From: Octopus vulgaris
Lineage: Eukaryota
Assembly: GCA_951406725.2 (NCBI GenBank)
Contig: OX597825.1
Location: 34,658,001-34,722,000 of the forward strand
Length of the DNA: 64,000 nt
Direction of reading: 5' to 3'
Below, in pieces: positions 18,050 through 56,255 of this stretch. The translations under genes were made by a program, and so were the position numbers. Below the pieces are notes generated by a model that was not told the origin of the DNA, made no database searches, and saw only the letters and a program-made list of their open reading frames with translations. Numbering within the stretch: the stretch's first letter is position 1; each line of letters opens with the position of its first letter.

Positions 18050-19164
18050 AGATCAAACATTCTTATAATATAAAAATATCCATCATTTAAAAAATTCTTT
18101 TAAAATATTACATGTTGTAAATTGAAGAGTATTGCAGTTTGATTGAAACATTGGAATATGTAGAAAGTGTGTTATCAAAGAAAGCAATACAAATAGAACA
18201 TTAAATATCGAAAATTACAATGACAAAGATACTGAAATGTTAATTTAGAAATATTTAATTAGTCCTGATATTTTGGATTAAAAACCCTTTTACAAAAGCT
18301 TTCAAGAATATGTCACTGATTAGTAGTTAATAAGATTATGATGTTTGGGGCAGTTAACCTCTTCTTCAGAGATTAGATATTTTTCAATATTTACATCTAT
18401 TTTATGTTTTGGTCTGTTTCTTTAATGTCTGATTGTCTTCAGATGTCTTATTCTTGCATATGTATCTAGTACCATTCTAGATGTAGACTAGGAATCTTTA
18501 TTTCTAAACTAATTACTAAATATTTTGAAACTAATTTGGTAATACAGAATTGTAGCTTGAGTCCAGTCAGGTTCTATCATATTCTCTATTACTGGTTTTA
18601 GTCATTAGACTGTGGTCATGCTGGGTTACTACTGCAATAGTTGCAGCTGATTACTTCGAACCTGGTACCTATCAACCTTGAAATAATGAAAGGTGAAGGG
18701 ACATGGATGAGATTTAAACTCAGAATATAAAGATAAGTAACCAAATACCATAATATATTTTGTTAGGTCTTCTACCAATTCTGCCAGTTGATTAGCAGAA
18801 TCATTAGAACATTGGGCAAATCATTAGAGCATTGCCTAAGAGTATTTAGTTATGGCACGTTACATTCTGAGTTCAAACTCTGCTGAAGTCAACTTTCTCA
18901 ATCATCATTCTGAGCTTCACAAAATAAATTACCAGTAAAGTATTATCTTGATTTATATTCCTATATGACACCTAAGTTTTAATAGATTTACAATAGAAAA
19001 AATATAGTGTTAATGTATGTATTGAACATTTTTCCATTTCTGAAGATGAGATTAATAGTCAGAAGAATTCTATTAGTTATTCTGATATACAAGTCAAATT
19101 ATTCAAACCAAACTTTACAGCTAAAAATGGTAGGTCAACTTATACACCAAGATGACTGTGGAGG

Positions 19165-19389
19165 CAAGCTGGCAGAAACGTTAGCACGCTGGGCGAAATG
19201 CTTAGCAGTATTTCGTCTGTCTTTACGTTCTGAGTTCAAATTCTGCCAAGGTCAACTTTGCCTTTCATCCTTTCGGGGTCGATAAATTAAGTACCAGTTA
19301 CACACTGGGGTCGATATAATCGACTTAATTCCTTTGTCTGTCCTTGTTTGTCCTCTTTGTGTTTAACCCTTTGTGGGTAGTAAAGAAAT
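19165..19389 (+). mobile_element. Young Meta-like SINE with 16-bp target-site duplication
   Basis: aagatgactgtggagg at 19149-19164 and 19390-19405. Confidence 0.9.
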
Positions 19390-22997: not shown

Positions 22998-24083
22998 TAC
23001 TATCAATAAAAATCAAAGATTTCTATGGTATTTTCAATTCATGGAACAGCTTCATTCACAATTTAATGTATGTATCATCATTTAATGTCTGTTTTTCTAT
23101 GCTGGCTTGGGTTAGATAGTTTAACTGGGACTAGTAAACCAGAGAGCTGTGTCAGGCTCCAGTTGTCTGTTTTGACTTGGTTTCTATGGCAGGATGTCCT
23201 TCCTAATGCCAACCACTTTACAGAACACTCTACAAAAGTGTCTTTTCTTTGTCATTGGCCTGGGTGCCCTTCTGTGTGTTGCCAGCACTGACCACAACCA
23301 TGATTTCACTTAGCATGATGTATCTTCTCAAGCACATATTTACATGTGTGTGTGGTGGGGTGTTTCCTCGTACTAACATCTCATGGCTCTTCCTTGTACT
23401 AACATCTCAATGTCATTCATTTCTAATATCCTGTAAAAAAAAACATGACTGGCCATGGGAAAATATCACCTTGTTCAGAAAGAGATACAGGTTGGCAACA
23501 AGAAGAGCATCCAGCTGTAGAAAATCCGCCCCAATATACTTTGTCCAACACATGCAAAGCATGGCAAAGTAGGCATTACAACAACAACGACAAGGACAGA
23601 AGTTTGAGTCAAAGTAATAAGATTTAAAAAGTGGTCAAGCTGACATTTCTAATTAGTCAAAAGATACCAAAAAAATTTTTCATGTTGCCATGCTAAAGAA
23701 AATTCTAATTGGCAAAAGGGCCAAGATTTTTGGTTAATGAATCATGAGTTTGGAGTTTGAATCTGTTCTAGACTTCCTATTGTGTGTTTTTGTGTGTGCG
23801 TTTGAAATCTGTAATGATGTGCAAGAGAGAATTTTGTGCTGGTATGAACACGTGACATGTATAACGAAAGACAGTTGGATTAAGAAGTGTTAAGCAATTC
23901 AAGAGGAAGGCAATGGAAGAAGTGGTGAAGTTTGATCTCAGGATAAAGTCTCACAAAGATGACAAGGGGACCACAGCGAGTGCTAGGGTGCTGTGGTGTA
24001 GCAGATCCATCCAACCCAATATGTTCCATTATAATAAAAGCAATTTTACATTAATCTGATGAGTTACTTTTGTAGAGTGCAAA

Positions 24084-24224
24084 TTTAGTATTCTTAAACA
24101 AGAATGCTCTTCACAGCAACTTCAAAATTTCAGCTAGCTAAACCATTGACTGCAGTCTGACAATGGCTTAGCTGGCCAAAACTTCAAAGTTACTGTCAAC
24201 AATATTCTTATATGAGAATAATAA
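24084..24224. mobile_element. Palindromic mini-element made of two head-to-head hammerhead copies (copy 1)
   Basis: Arms are inverted about gactgcagtc. Right arm reads CAGU-CUGACaA-UGGCUUAGCUGGCC-aAAAC-UUCaAA-GUU-ACUG. Confidence 0.65.
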
Positions 24225-24272
24225 ATAAATATACATACATAGGTAGGTACGTACGTATGTACCTACCTACCT

Positions 24273-24307
<35 letters not shown>

Positions 24308-25708
24308 AACAAACAAACAAACAAACAAACAAAAGGTATATATGTTGGGTTGAGACAGCATATTGAATCCTAGACTGGGAAACATAAAGAAGTATAGGTC
24401 TGTATTATAAACACCAGTGTAGTGGTGCTTAGTACCAGGTCATTAATACTAGGTCAATCAGAACTGAGGTACATCTGAGTTGTGAGAATTTAAGAGAAAG
24501 CAGAGTAAAAGTCAGAATACAACAATAAATATCAAGATGATTGCTATTCAAAAGTTATTGTAACCAGAGTTGGTCAGCTGGTTGTTTGGGAACAAACAAA
24601 AAGAATAAATTCCCAAACAACCAGCTGATATCAATGTAGATTTGTTAGTGACCTGAATTTGTAAGTGAACAGCTTTTTGGTGGATGAATACAAGCTGGGC
24701 AAAGTGGAAATGGCTTAAGTGAAAGCCGGTGTTGATAGTGCCAGAGTAACACTCACTGAGGATATAGCTCCTCTAACAACACTATGTATCTCTGTGACAC
24801 AGAGCCCCAAGCTATAGAACATCTGTCGAGATTATTCTAATGTAAGAAACTTGTTATTCTGCTGACTATGTAATGTGAATTGAAGATGCAGAGAATGTGT
24901 TCAGCTTTGGATGAATAAAATGTAGCTGTATGTAAGATAGAATTTGAGGTTTTGTAGACAAAAGCATTACTACTCTTACTGTTGAAAATCTAGTCTGGTA
25001 CTATATACATATCCATATCACAATAGAAATGTTGTGTTTATATAAATATTGGTTTCAAATTTTGGCACAGAGCCAGCAGTTTGAAAGGGGTTGGGGTAAT
25101 TCAATTACATCAACCCCAGTACTCTATTAGTACTTATTTTATTGACCATGAAAGGCAAAGTCAACCTTGGTGGAATTTGCATTCAAAATGTTAGGATGGA
25201 TGAAATACTGCTAAGCATTTTGCCCAATATGCTAACAATTCTTCCAGCTCACTATTATATGTGTAGATATTTAAAAAGAAAAAAAAACTACATTGCATTT
25301 GTTTCAATTAATTTTGAAAATAATAAAGAATTTGGTAAAATATCTAAGCTGGTAATTGGAATATAAATTGATAAGGAATTTTAATTTAGATGACTTTATA
25401 TAGAAAGTTTGTATCATAGGAACAGGGGCAGTCTTGAGTAGATTGGAATCAAAAGGATTATCTAAGATTACATTATTTAATATACTCTTTCTTTTCTCAA
25501 GATGATAAGGTGAGATTTGAGAGTGATTTAGCTGCTATTTCTTGTAGATCGAGCAACCGCCAAAACTTCTTCCAATTGAGAAATTGACCACAGGCACTGA
25601 CTGGTCATATCATTGGCAACAATTGTTGAGCACCTAGAAAATCTTGTTAGAATATTTTCTCTGAATTGTTGTATCAAACTGTTTTTCATTTTCTTTTGTA
25701 ATTTTCAG

Positions 25709-26325: not shown

Positions 26326-26454
26326 ATATATGTATATAAGTATATTCAGTATATGGTTTAACTTATAAAACAAAGATCAACAAATTCAATCATATTTTTC
26401 ATAATTGGAGAAGATTAGATGTTGATATGGATTGAAATTATTTTTATTCATGTA

Positions 26455-26532
26455 GCTATACTATCATTTCTTACAGAAAGACAATAAATTCATTTTAAGA
26501 ATCTGGGTTGTCAAAAAGTATTCGTCAGTAGC
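26455..26532 (-). ncRNA. Hammerhead ribozyme motif (left arm; CUGACGA and GAAA intact, stems II/III decayed)
   Basis: GCUA-CUGACGA-AUAC..GUAA-GAAAU-GAUA-GUA-UAGC. Confidence 0.65.
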
Positions 26533-26651
26533 AAAAATTAAAGAAAGGAAAAAAAGCTAAAAAGATGTTAGAATTACATAGTAATAGCTATGTAATTCCA
26601 ACGTCTTTTTAGCTTTGTTTTCTTTTTCTTTTTTTCCTTTCTTTAATTTTT

Positions 26652-26729
26652 GCTACTGACAAATACCTTTTGACAACCCAGATTCTTAAAATGAATTTAT
26701 TGTCCTTCTGTATGAAACGATCGTATAGT
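26652..26729 (+). ncRNA. Hammerhead ribozyme motif (right arm; G8>A)
   Basis: GCUA-CUGACaA-AUAC..GUAU-GAAAC-GAUC-GUA-UAGU. Confidence 0.7.
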
Positions 26730-27021
26730 TACATGAATAAAAATTAAAATAATTTCAATCCATATCAGCATCTAATCTTCTCCAATTACGAAAAATATGA
26801 TTGAATTTGTTGAACTTTGTTTTGTAAGTTAACTCATATACTGAATATACTTATATGAAATTTCATATCTATGCTAATTTACACCAGGAAATTAAAAGTA
26901 AGGTATGAAGAAACATTAGAAATCTCTTGGAAACTACTCCAATTAAAGGACAAATTCACATTCAACCCTTTTAAAATATATACATACATACATGCATGCA
27001 TGCATTCATACATACATGCAT

Positions 27022-28747: not shown

Positions 28748-28784
<37 letters not shown>

Positions 28785-28794
<10 letters not shown>

Positions 28795-29081
28795 TAGAGG
28801 ACTGACCACTAAAAGTGGACAGCCTATATGCTAAACATAGACGTCAAATCGCCATTACCACGAAGAATCTGTTCTCAGAGATTTGCTGAGATTTTTCTTG
28901 AGAACAGATTCTTCGTGGTAATGGCGATTTGACGTCTATGTTTAGCATATAGGCTGTCCACTTTTAGTGGTCAGTCCTCTAAATTTTATATGTAACACAA
29001 TTTTTAATCTTCGGATTTTTTAAAATATGCTAAGCCACTGGTTTTAATTGATTAATATCAATTTCTACCCTTATTTAATTT
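28785..29081. mobile_element. Fold-back element: perfect 93-bp inverted arms plus 90-bp tail, flanked by (TA)n
   Basis: 28785-28877 is the exact reverse complement of 28899-28991. Confidence 0.9.
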
Positions 29082-29102
29082 TATATATATATATATATAT
29101 AT

Positions 29103-40102: not shown

Positions 40103-40538
40103 TTTTTTAAAGTAACAAACTGAGGAAAAGAAATCCTTCAAAAGGATATGTTAAACATCCAATTCACTGGTACTTCAGTTGGATACCATATTAATATTGG
40201 TATAATTCAATAATAAGGATAAATTAAATATAGAGATATTCTATTGACATTCAATAATTTATTTATATTACAATATTATATTAAATACTATGAATATAAT
40301 ACATAACATAGTATTTCGTCTTTCTGAACCAAATTAACCCTGAAGGGATTTATATATAATTGAACTGTGATTAAGTACACCAGAAAAAAATATATATAAG
40401 TCGAAACAATTTGTTGGACTTCTATGGTTTTTATAATTATTTATATAATATTATGTATTATATTCATAGTATTTAATGTAATATTGTAATATAAATAAAT
40501 TATTGAATGTCAATAGAATATCTCTATATTTAATTTAT
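40103..40538. mobile_element. Fold-back PLE-like element with 88-bp inverted arms enclosing a hammerhead, between (TA)n tracts
   Basis: Arms 40219-40306 / 40451-40538 are nearly perfect. Confidence 0.8.
40338..40417 (+). ncRNA. Hammerhead ribozyme motif (A9>G)
   Basis: CC-CUGAAGg-GAUUUAUAUAUA..UAUAUAUAAGUC-GAAAC-AAUUU-GUU-GG. Confidence 0.65.
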
Positions 40539-41549
40539 ATATATATTTAAAAACTTACTGTTGATAAAAGTTGGGTGTGCATTGCATAAGTTACATAATA
40601 AATGAAAAAATGCATTGTAAATAAACAACAACATGAAGAAAACATATACATGTACTGAGTGTACAACCGGATGGGAGACAGACACAGAGAATCCCTAATT
40701 TTTCATCAGTTATCAGCCAAAATGGTAATACTCAGTTTCGCACCATTACATATATATATATATATAAATAAATCAATCTAAGTCTTGTTAACTGAGTAGA
40801 ATTCGCTTTGCTGTTGAGATCTCATAGACCTAATCACATCTGTTACTTTCACTCATTGTCTTTAAAGACCAGATTCACTCCAATCTACATTGTCTGAATT
40901 CTCCAAAAATTTTGTTCAACTAGTCTTCTTTTAGTTAATTTTTCAACTTACTTATTGTTTTTAGATTAGAGAGGTCATAGGGAGTTTCTGTCTGTTAATT
41001 GTTTGAATAATTTCAGTTGATGGCAGTTTTCAACGTAGTTTGTTGCACATGGAGTCTGACTGTATTTGATACAAATGTGTGTGTGTACATAAATGTGCAT
41101 CTATCTGTTTTTATTCATGTGTATGTATGTATGTATATATGTATTTGTATATATATATATATATAGGTATGATGTATGTATGTATCTTTTCTCACTTTAA
41201 AAAGCTTCAGGCACAAGCATTGATTTATTTTTAACATTTCTATTATGTGTTATGTACTGCAACTGGTTTTAACTTAGGAAGGCAAAACACAGACTAGAAA
41301 CTTCTATAATGGAATGAAGGCATGTACCAGCGTAGGTGGTAAACTCTCTGAATACCTGCTGCAAGAGCCACTCATCATTGCCACATCAGGCCCCAAGCAA
41401 AATTGAAAAGCCACAACCATGTCATACATGTTTACAGAGAATAACCAAGCAAAGGCATTACTTGAAATCAAATTTTAACCATCATATACATGAGTTTGTA
41501 TATATATATGAAAATATATGCATATAAATATATATATATATATATATAT

Positions 41550-53054: not shown

Positions 53055-53147
53055 GTTGTCAGCAGACAGCAGTGTAACTTAATGGTAGAGTACTCAGCTG
53101 GTATCTGATGGGTATGGGTTCGTTTCCTGTGACTGTCTGCTGACAAC
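53055..53147 (+). other. tRNA-like sequence enclosed by a 15-bp perfect inverted repeat
   Basis: D arm actt-aatggta-gagt, anticodon arm tcag-ctggtat-ctga, T arm atggg-ttcgttt-cctgt. Flanks gttgtcagcagacag / ctgtctgctgacaac. Confidence 0.6.
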
Positions 53148-55252
53148 TTTTTCTGTCACAACAGCTTGTATACTTGCATTTACCCTCTTGTCTTTAAACC
53201 TCACTAATTTCTTTGCCACATTAACCTATTGCAATTAATGTGATTGTCACATACATACAATCAGTACATTGATGTATTCCAACATTTGCTTATTTTCTTA
53301 GTTTCTTTTTCTGCTTTTTTTTTTCATGGAATTTTCAACAAATGTCAGCTTAAAGATGTTCATGCTAACTATAAACTGCACTAATCTTGGAGGGACTGTG
53401 AAGACCATGAGTATAAACCATTCTTCCTGACTAAGCCATTAAAATTTTTGAATATTTCTTTTCCATATCTAAACACATTGTCCTACCTCACAGGGTTCTT
53501 TTTCTTTTACTGTATCTCCCAGCATACAAATGGACATAATTTATAGTGTAATCATTCAAACAGTGTCACTATGTTTCCAAATGTTGCTGTGTTTCACATG
53601 GAGTCTTTGATACTTCAAAGTTCTATAAGTCGACCTACCTTAATTTTAACAGCAAAGTTTGGCCTGGAAAAATTTGACTTATATGCCACAAAACACAGTA
53701 AACATTGGTTTATGAAGAAATTCTGGACACCATCTTTTACTCATTGTCTTCATGAAGTCATTTCCTTCTAATCTCACAACATCCACACCATGAATTTATA
53801 CTGATCTTGTCTCATTTACTGTCCACACTGATTTCTTGTAACTTGTTTTATCTTTACTGTTAATTCTGTTATGGGTTTCTGCATTTTGTGTCAGTAAAGA
53901 AATCGCTTTTGTATTTCAACCAAATATTTTGAATATTTTCATTGTTAAACCCATTATCATTATTCATGCATTTAAAGCAATGTTCTGGCAGAATCATTAG
54001 AATCTGGGAGCAAATGCTTAGTGGCATTTTGTCTGTCTTTATGTTCTGAGTTCTAATTCCACCAAGGTTGACTTTGCCTTTCATCCCTTTGGAGTCGATA
54101 AAATAAGTACCAGTTGAACACTGAGGTCAATGTAATTGACTTACCCACTCCTTGAATTTGCTGGGCCTTGTACCAAGAAACCATTATTATTCATACACAT
54201 TTGGCTACATTTTCTGACGTGTTGTAGTGCACCAAAACACTGTATACAATAAGTTCGTCATTATTATTATTTTTTTTTTTAAGTATTTTTCTGTTATTGG
54301 TCCTATATTATGTTTGTGTGTGTGTTTCTCTGCTTTTAACATCCAAGAGTGTTGTTATTTTTATTATTCCTTTCATCGTTTTGAGGTTGATAAAATGAGT
54401 CCCAGTTGAGCACTGGAGTCAACGTTATTGACTAGCTCCCATCCATCAAAATTTCAGGCCTTGTGCCTTTAGAAGAAAGGATTATTATTATTAGGAAGGG
54501 AGGCAAAATGACTGAATCTATTGAGCCACCATTAGTACATAGACGACTATCAGTGTTTTGTTACATAGTTATATCCCTTTACATTCTGAGTTTTAATTAT
54601 ACTGAGGGGAAATTTACTTTATATCATTCACAGGATCAATAAAATATACTATCAACAACAACTACAGTTGTTATAATCAATGATACTTTAACCCCAACAA
54701 ATTGCCCCAATGTCGGAAATTATTATTATTATTTCCCTTAGGAAAACCTAAGGGAAATAACTTTCAATTCATTTTTTTTTTTTAATGTTTTCCCCACCGA
54801 AAGCTGTAGAGTACCAGAGTGTGATTTGAAAGAGAGATTTGGTTGCTATTTCTAATAGGCTGAAGAAATGCATAGCGGTTTCCCTGTTGCTGTTGTTTTG
54901 GATCAACATTTTATTAAACTGATCGGTGGTCAGTGGTGTTCCAGTCATGACAACTCTTTTTTTGTTTTTGTTTTCTTGATTACATTTATCCAACATGTCC
55001 TTTTTAAGATGGTATGATGGTTTTGAGAGAGATTTGACTGTTATTATTAGTGTATTAAACGACCATGTAAAGGCTTCCTTGTTGACATGTGTTTGGCTGG
55101 GTTAAGTGTGTGCATGAAAATATATGCTTCTTCTCTATGCACAAATGTATGTATGTATGTGTTTTAAATAACAATTTAACTACAAAAATAATAATTGCAA
55201 AATATACAATAAATAAATAAAACAAGAGTTGAAAATACATATTTAATATAAC

Positions 55253-55380
55253 TTATTCTTATACAAGAACGTTGACAGCAAATTCGAAGTTTCAGCCAGT
55301 TAAACCATCATCAAATTGATAATGGCTTAACTGACCAAAACTTCAAAGGCCTTGTCAACAACATTTTTGAATAAGAATAA
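55253..55380. mobile_element. Palindromic double-hammerhead mini-element (copy 2)
   Basis: Homologous to 24084-24224. The left arm on minus reads uUGAUGA-UGGUUUAACUGGCU-GAAAC-UUCGAA. Confidence 0.6.
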
Positions 55381-56255
55381 TAAATTTACACTCTACAAAA
55401 ATATAGAGTAACCCATAATAGTATTTATTTTCTTATTCTAGCTAAAATAATTGAATGCATAAAGCCTTCAGCTTAATGAATTAACCATATAAATTATGAA
55501 ATATGAAAGAACAATCAATTACAATTATAACCTATATCATCCCACTAACACTGTTGCTCTAGTTTAACCCCAGATCAGCTCTGTTCAAGTAGACTAACAA
55601 TCAAAAGCATTCCAGCTATAACCAGCCCCATTTTTTACTCTCAGGTAATGCATCCAGGACCACACAATCTAATGTATCCCTTTTGTTAATGAGACAAGAG
55701 AGTGAAGTTTGGGGCATATTTGCCTGTTATTTCCGGTACATTGAGTAATTACATGAATGTTCCCTCAGCTCAGTAGAGGTACCTTCCACTTGTTAAGTAT
55801 TCCCAATATGTTAATCAACAACACTTCAATGGATACAATCTTCAGTATTTTTGGGGGTGGGTGGGGGTGCCCCTAGTTATTAAGGAATAGCTTGCTTAAT
55901 AAACAGATTGTCTAAGACATAAAACATACTCTGTCCCACTAGTTAACTTATACATTCTCTACAAACACTTTATGTCTATTGATAGTTACCTGTATTTCAT
56001 CAATGACCCCAAGCTGAATAATATTCTTCATGAGGTAACTAAAGAATGAGAAATGTTTAACTACTATTTTCGAGGCATTTTCCCTTCACTATTCTTATTT
56101 CTAACTTTCATCCACACATCTGTCAAGACACCTCTCCCTTTTTCTCTCTCTCTCTCAATAAATCATTTTCCAACAGGTGCTGTGGTGGCACTTATGTCAT
56201 GTGATATATTCAAATCTTTCACAAACAGCCACAAGAATCAATTGCATAAATGCTT

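Follow-up and report, generated by a model that had tools for sequence, protein, structure and literature searches.

The window analyzed here, a 64,000-nt stretch of Octopus vulgaris DNA, contains two fold-back sequences, at 24084-24224 and 55253-55380, whose arms carry hammerhead-like boxes. Reading the sequence alone, an earlier note had taken them for copies of a palindromic element of about 135 bp in which the palindrome itself was amplified and ribozymes lay in both polarities. We asked what these palindromes are, and whether they were copied as units or formed separately. Our analysis indicates that both are very probably dead and very short stumps of an old Penelope-like retrotransposon (PLE) with Hydra-clade motifs, whose joins likely arose anew at each insertion.

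The two window sequences are homologous hairpins, as had been supposed: blastn aligned them at 77.5% identity over 138 nt (E 1e-25), and all four arms can be aligned to one another. The ..RAGAATAA ends read earlier also exist, at the ends of the short arms. The symmetry does not survive inspection, as the real unit is longer and asymmetric, with a tail of about 85 nt on one arm. Copy 1 reaches left to 24020 and copy 2 reaches right to at least 55422, and the two are oppositely oriented, with the element sense on the minus strand in copy 1 and on the plus strand in copy 2. Their centers are unlike, spanning 24 nt in copy 1 and 21 nt in copy 2. Contigs under three other organism labels revealed no empty site at copy 1; one 561-nt piece corresponds to 23498-24058 with 5 differences and enters the end of the copy 1 tail by about 38 nt, and no piece crosses the palindrome. 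Family positions are counted from the A in the CAGT with which the hammerhead begins (+1).

Features of the two window copies (window coordinates; family positions carry a sign)
Feature	Position	Strand	Basis or remark
Copy 1, entire insertion of about 208 bp (tailed long arm and inverted short arm)	24020..24227	-	nhmmer against family reference: 24153-24020 minus = family -2..+143; 24146-24227 plus = about -2..+74
Copy 1, one-sided tail, family about +75..+143, final ~15 nt missing	24020..24083	-	outside the element of the sequence-only reading
Copy 1, palindromic stretch of long arm; its hammerhead relic lacks 4 nt in first core box	24084..24153	-	
Copy 1, inversion center, loop-free 2-bp GC overlap at family -2/-1	24152..24153	.	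sequence
Copy 1, short (inverted) arm, family about -2..+73	24152..24227	+	
Copy 1, short-arm hammerhead relic with G8A, G12A, C17U	24153-24195	+	
Compound microsatellite adjoining copy 1 short arm (target-type sequence)	24228..24333	.	sequence
Copy 2, whole insertion, tail weakly traceable to about 55450	55252..55422	+	nhmmer: 55318-55422 plus = +6..+110; 55318-55252 minus = about -1..+69
Copy 2, short (inverted) arm; lacks C3 and the 5' strand of stem I, with mutations in stem III and at the cleavage site	55252..55314	-	
Copy 2, center, 21 nt between +14 anchors	55305..55325	.	L001 vs L019
Copy 2, long arm and tail start; first core box mostly gone, G12A, U16.1G	55316..55422	+	

Genome copy number, which the sequence-only reading had proposed to check, proved to be that of a dispersed family. 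Searching with copy 2 returned 615 candidates on many chromosomes, 40 of which were scored; 30 loci were retrieved from this search, 27 of them distinct, including both window copies. Because the family is dispersed and has many copies, the palindrome is a repeat and not a chance structure. Blind sampling of 60 stretches (600 kb) detected a single clear copy; weak matches comprised two opposite-strand pairs and one solitary hit, and a reversed control contained none. The sample suggests a family of roughly 5,000-14,000 copies, with a very wide interval of about 120-41,000.

Throughout the family, the short arm stops near +70 and the long arm runs to +158, beyond which lie simple repeats. The tail is contiguous in 22 of 27 palindrome-selected loci, sits behind an insertion of another element in 2 and is absent in 3. 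Selecting on the tail gave 51 copies (two queries, leaving out two query hits, one segmental duplicate and six repeats), 29 inverted and 22 non-inverted. Flanks consist of simple repeats in 27 and 30 of 34 copies, compared to 17% of random windows. The family is old and inactive, since all of its own ORF pieces encountered are broken and its arms differ from the majority sequence by 8.7% at non-CpG sites. No intact or full-length family copy was found.

This sequence is the 3' end of an element encoding RT and an endonuclease. A search with only the 3' part returned 2,714 candidates, including non-inverted copies with common upstream sequence. Three more searches extended this sequence upstream, passing a TATA box and a 3' UTR of about 750 nt before reaching a decayed endonuclease and then RT motifs. 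Read in several decayed copies, the endonuclease has a CxCX5C linker, YIG, and CxxC and CxH around a conserved E and N, with no CCHH. The RT pieces carry FDI..YY and YRxDG and match a better-preserved related ORF at E 2e-23 to 2e-28 (tblastn). One locus, L169, holds RT, endonuclease region, UTR and hammerhead in a single stretch, and another, L136, joins endonuclease, UTR, hammerhead and tail. By tblastn and motifs, RT is followed by a C-terminal GIY-YIG-type endonuclease on L169/L144, L149 and L136, and the same loci hold the 3' UTR.

Pfam gave zero matches for three RT/endonuclease pieces of the family itself and, for the relative L161, an RVT_1 match at E 5e-4, below the cut-off. When longer proteins were searched for homologs of the endonuclease piece, there were 72 candidates, none at E<=0.001, which is weak evidence. 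L162, a less decayed relative from the same genome, groups with RT/GIY-YIG clusters in Atlas (0.93-0.98). The RWK and DKT motifs are clear only in L161; copies of the family itself are too decayed, with a GKT-like remnant in L149. Hydra-clade PLEs are defined by these endonuclease motifs and by (TA)n targeting in the accessible text of PMC8557442, and our putative assignment to this clade rests on motifs and tblastn. Other features of the clade are also present, namely a pLTR hammerhead downstream of the ORF, (TA)n or simple-repeat targets, an inverted 5'-truncated copy and a one-sided tail. Separately, L161-L166 are better-preserved Hydra-type ORFs of other families, some with long asparagine-rich inserts between RT and endonuclease that resemble those in Adineta PLEs (PMC3846280, accessible text).

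We reconstructed the hammerhead from 55 distinct copies that span the region from the TATA box to the ribozyme, whose layout is type I. The majority sequence has stem I CAGT/ACTG, an extra U after A9, G10.1-C11.1, GGC/GCC, GAAA, a palindromic stem III and the cleavage triplet GUC, with C at position 17 in 46/55 copies. Position 4 is C in 37/55 copies and T in 16, and position 5 is G in 33/55 and A in 18, the same CpG-decay pattern as at other CpG sites. The master therefore probably had CCGACGA as its first core box, and the CUGA reading would largely reflect decay. The consensus first drawn from the four window arms consequently stands in part. Its hammerhead-like boxes, the extra U after A9 and GAAA, accompanied by UH and by stems I-III in type I order, are features of the family, whereas its GUU is GUC in the family and its CUGANGA likely a decayed CCGACGA, with C rather than U4 in most copies and a matching G5A decay.

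Very few of these ribozymes have survived. None of the four window arms retains an intact hammerhead core, stem I and core are kept in 2/82 arms (a count that may be slightly too low, as local alignment may trim ends), and both hammerheads are complete in 0/41 palindromes. Rfam identified no hammerhead in the window at E<=10 and none in the non-palindromic copy L059, and a CTGA-based hammerhead descriptor had no match in the window or near six related ORFs. In blind-sampled DNA the same descriptor picked out two type I hammerheads of canonical form that belong to other families (L184:7708 and L222:17). The base pairs of the hammerhead have a predicted probability of about 0.28 when the majority sequence is folded as a direct copy; in a model palindrome, which adopts a rod fold, this probability is 0. 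Additionally, the parent pLTR contains a native inverted repeat, -12 to -2 against +8 to +18 with 9/11 matches (L087 and L112, for example), which would compete with the hammerhead fold in read-through RNA and would be absent from RNA starting at +1. The hammerheads thus look like passengers of the palindrome: stem I is lost at most joins, and the transcript of a palindrome would be expected to fold as a rod.

Centers and arms across the family bear on whether a palindromic unit was amplified. Centers range from 5 to 54 nt in 51 measurable palindromes; 15 of these have a 17-nt center and 11 have one of 24-25 nt. In the 17-nt class the arms overlap on TCxGA, and the middle base, relative to the tail, comes from the long arm in 8 copies and from the short arm in 7. 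This split argues against one master, which would fix the base; two masters would mimic it. Among 41 copies, long and short arms do not differ in majority base at any column, and the two arms of one copy are as alike (identity 0.848) as arms of different copies (0.843). Rare variants are shared slightly more within a copy than between copies (0.56 vs 0.39, permutation p 0.03), an excess that fits a common template, fold-back or later conversion equally. Because the centers vary, the middle base divides 8:7 and fixed arm differences are lacking, the palindromes likely form anew at each insertion and are not copied as a unit. We hold PLE identity and formation anew, taken together, with high confidence.

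The alternative of a palindromic mini-element amplified as a unit, either MITE-like or as a viroid-like RNA of two polarities, is very unlikely. It would explain the near-constant end of the short arm, the strong clustering of the centers in two modal classes and the thousands of candidate copies; indeed, the centers are far more clustered than in a second family described below, and a few amplified palindromic masters could also produce such clustering. Against it stand the one-sided tail, the variable centers, the 22/51 copies that are not inverted, the lack of arm-specific differences, the usual loss of stem I with abolition of the hammerhead fold in the palindrome, and direct continuity with a PLE ORF. 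The target-site duplications (TSDs) that had been suggested as a check show no excess, the longest shared flank word being 6.3 nt against 6.1 nt in mismatched flank pairs for 34 copies, in which microsatellite flanks and age hide TSDs. We rejected a MITE for want of symmetric termini and uniform structure, and a viroid-like RNA because stem I is mostly lost and the palindrome folds as a rod. A retrozyme was also rejected: the 110-230 nt upstream of tail-selected loci are inversion, flank or UTR, with no short tandem monomer, and the intact hammerheads that it requires are confined to the 2/82 complete arms.

Several proposals of the sequence-only reading can be judged on this basis. Amplification of the palindrome itself and a function for ribozymes of two polarities find no support, while the description of the element as MITE-looking yet ribozyme-derived was right, in that it is no true MITE and is the ribozyme-bearing end of a PLE. 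As for a shared inversion center, the centers vary, yet the junctions are not random and cluster at the hammerhead start. We consider a second alternative highly improbable, in which the palindromes are assembly errors or arose from longer, inverted PLE copies that had already inserted and then recombined with each other or lost the sequence between them. Longer inverted structures do occur in the family (L065, L074, L096 and L102). The arms of the palindromes, however, are about 15% diverged and equally decayed, so they are neither assembly duplicates nor recent, and we rejected an assembly artifact on these grounds. Furthermore, the centers fall on self-complementary words inside a stretch of about 12 nt, which is also where direct copies end.

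The 3' ends of 30 upstream-selected copies fall at +56 to +77 in 14, at +140 to +158 in 11 (including one query and three segmental duplicates) and elsewhere in 5. A pooled histogram of 161 hits agrees with two preferred 3' ends, near +70 and +158, but is biased by the tail queries. At the other side, the 5' reach lies between -12 and +10 in 31/51 tail-selected copies, including 10 of 22 direct ones; reaches to -12 are mostly inflated by the native inverted repeat, and one tail query required sequence from +27. The 5' ends and junctions cluster at -2 to +10, at the hammerhead start and about 30 nt below a conserved TATA box. This box, TATATAAA at -33 to -26, is kept in 46-53 of 55 copies per position, with a chance of about 0.006 for a 7-nt slot. 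The junction cluster is therefore probably placed where the RNA 5' end would be. Some arms pass well upstream of +1, to -16, -19, -22 and -37, so some templates were read-through and not promoter-started.

Two side observations concern the end of the short arm. Solo tails starting at +64/+65, right at this end, make up 4/29 non-query tail-only matches (L235, L240, L242 and L256). In addition, a different hammerhead-type repeat is inserted twice at the same AT-rich spot near +73 (L021:1635-1940 and L027:1646-1790), which is the short-arm end. One of these insertions is palindromic and one is direct, and there is an apparent 12-bp duplication. The possibility that this sequence is an alternative family extension common to L021 and L027 was rejected; the sequence comes from another PLE family, inserted at this one AT-rich position in both loci.

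We lean towards a twin-priming mechanism for these ends and joins, judging from the sequence pattern. The element protein would nick both strands of an AT-rich target, and two cDNAs would be primed, one per internal start site, on RNA mostly begun at the TATA/Inr promoter of the pLTR. The cDNA 3' ends would then anneal on short self-complementary words (TCxGA, CxG, GC, GGCC or stem III) and be filled in, leaving a loop-less palindrome with the 85-nt tail on one side. Annealing of two strands would account better than a hairpin for centers in which at most one base is unpaired and the middle base can come from either arm. Work on an Anolis PLE in vitro describes two internal RT starts that bound the tail and cleavage of both target strands (PMC11167929, accessible text), and the Penelope of D. 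virilis is described with a TATA-less internal promoter (PMC2377424, accessible text).

A hairpin loop needs 3 nt or more. This bears on the main competitor, which shares the PLE origin and makes the mirror arm by fold-back self-priming, the cDNA turning back or an antisense template priming itself, so that the junction cluster at the hammerhead start would mark a stall of RT or the native hairpin there, not the start of transcription. We think this unlikely, though far from negligible. The native inverted repeat at -12 to -2 and +8 to +18 could stall RT or prime the fold-back, and it blurs the -12 to +10 boundary; some arms run past the putative start, and the slight excess of variants common to the arms of one copy points the same way, as does the self-priming reading proposed for Adineta PLEs (PMC3846280, accessible text). 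The modal centers, however, with 0-1 unpaired nt, are too tight for a hairpin loop, there is no visible class of centers that keeps the native 8-nt loop, and the middle base comes from either arm (8:7). Direct copies without a mirror arm stop at the same place (10/22), and the +70 site where the short arm ends also serves long direct copies, as a second priming site predicts.

Taking twin priming one step further, we tentatively propose that the commonest insertion may be a full copy of an RNA of about 160 nt, transcribed from a TATA/Inr promoter on the first strand of the hammerhead, with two cDNAs, started 85 nt apart, joined by annealing of their 3' ends across a central mismatch. The CCGA-core hammerhead of the master could then have been still cutting or a purely structural signal. 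If this is true, the fossil copies map the promoter and both RT start sites and provide genomic evidence for twin priming over self-priming. Testable predictions for twin priming from pLTR-initiated RNA follow from four features of these copies: centers that lack a loop, a middle base supplied by one arm or the other, a shared 5' stop some 30 nt downstream of the TATA box, and the use of two 3' ends.

The window contains further palindromes. The one at 28782-29085 belongs to a much younger family, 95-97% identical and with 3,038 candidates, whose short arm and tail are arranged in the same way; its 96-nt arms are 99% complementary, its one-sided tail is about 90 nt and (TA)n lies on both sides. 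Junctions in this family are scattered. Longer copies (L286) have a type I hammerhead with a long stem II upstream, absent from the window copy, so the layout needs no ribozyme at its center. Two other palindromes, at 26334-26856 (arms 93-94% complementary, adjoining (TA)n) and 40206-40551 (91%), are possibly inverted stumps of other PLE families. Elsewhere, 53068-53138 gives a tRNA-like Rfam match above the gathering score, and 19116-19335 belongs to a dispersed SINE-like repeat family present at about 14 other places.

Dead PLE stumps such as these matter for repeat annotation, where they can pass for MITEs, pre-miRNA hairpins or ribozymes of two polarities. Our literature search, with Repbase, Dfam, subscription papers and most supplements outside its scope, found no description of the octopus family or of PLE twin priming. 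The head-to-head layout of PLEs is already published (Arkhipova 2013; Craig 2021; Frangieh 2024), and the octopus element is a new family of a known kind, set apart from Hydra-1_Obim by its hammerhead. To this the present analysis adds a tail that measures about 85 nt, the spacing from the TATA box, a middle base that can come from either arm, and a core that was probably CCGA.

The closest likeness is to the EN+ PLEs, as far as the accessible text of PMC3846280 and PMC8557442 goes. An inverted 5'-truncated copy with a one-sided tail is known for these elements, and the pLTR of those in Adineta vaga has TATA and Inr, head-to-head palindromic junctions and a one-sided tail (PMC3846280). Like the octopus family, EN+ PLEs have inverted head-to-head pLTRs, a junction palindrome, a tail on one arm, a TATA followed by an Inr-like word and solo pLTR units without an ORF. 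The octopus family differs in its tail, about 85 nt rather than 30-40 nt, in its spacing of about 30 nt from TATA to the Inr-like word, in having the ORF-less stump as its majority form, and in showing no TSD because its targets are simple repeats. How PLEs make inverted junctions is described as unresolved in both sources.

Hydra-clade PLEs, including Hydra-1_Obim and Penelope-13_HM, share the CxCX5C linker, CxxC, CxH, the lack of CCHH and (TA)n targets with the octopus family, and Penelope-13_HM also carries an inverted truncated copy (PMC8557442). As here, the type I hammerhead of several members has an additional base after A9 together with a stem III of the ACTT..AAGT type. Hydra-1_Obim, itself from an octopus, has a different hammerhead and is therefore another family, and the Hydra-clade cores listed in the accessible text all start with CTGA, in contrast to the probable CCGA of our family. 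Minimal hammerheads of PLEs resemble ours in the unpaired base between 9 and 10.1, G10.1-C11.1, the short stem I, the palindromic stem III and the occurrence of neighboring pairs on opposite strands; such pairs lie 100-700 bp apart there, whereas the octopus pairs abut, and the accessible text of that source makes no mention of a U4C core (PMC4209133).

Poseidon of Anolis (PAc) offers a parallel for the proposed mechanism. Its two tail-defining RT starts, the cutting and extension of both strands and its AT-rich targets match our reading of the octopus family, and its hammerhead is dispensable for insertion (PMC11167929). PAc belongs to a different clade, the octopus start sites would be about 85 nt apart, and the accessible text of the PAc paper does not treat the formation of inverted junctions. 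Finally, non-LTR retrozymes are, like the octopus stumps, non-coding, hammerhead-bearing and derived from PLEs (bioRxiv 10.64898/2026.07.22.740005, accessible text). They are head-to-tail tandem monomers, whereas the octopus stumps are single head-to-head structures with broken ribozymes.
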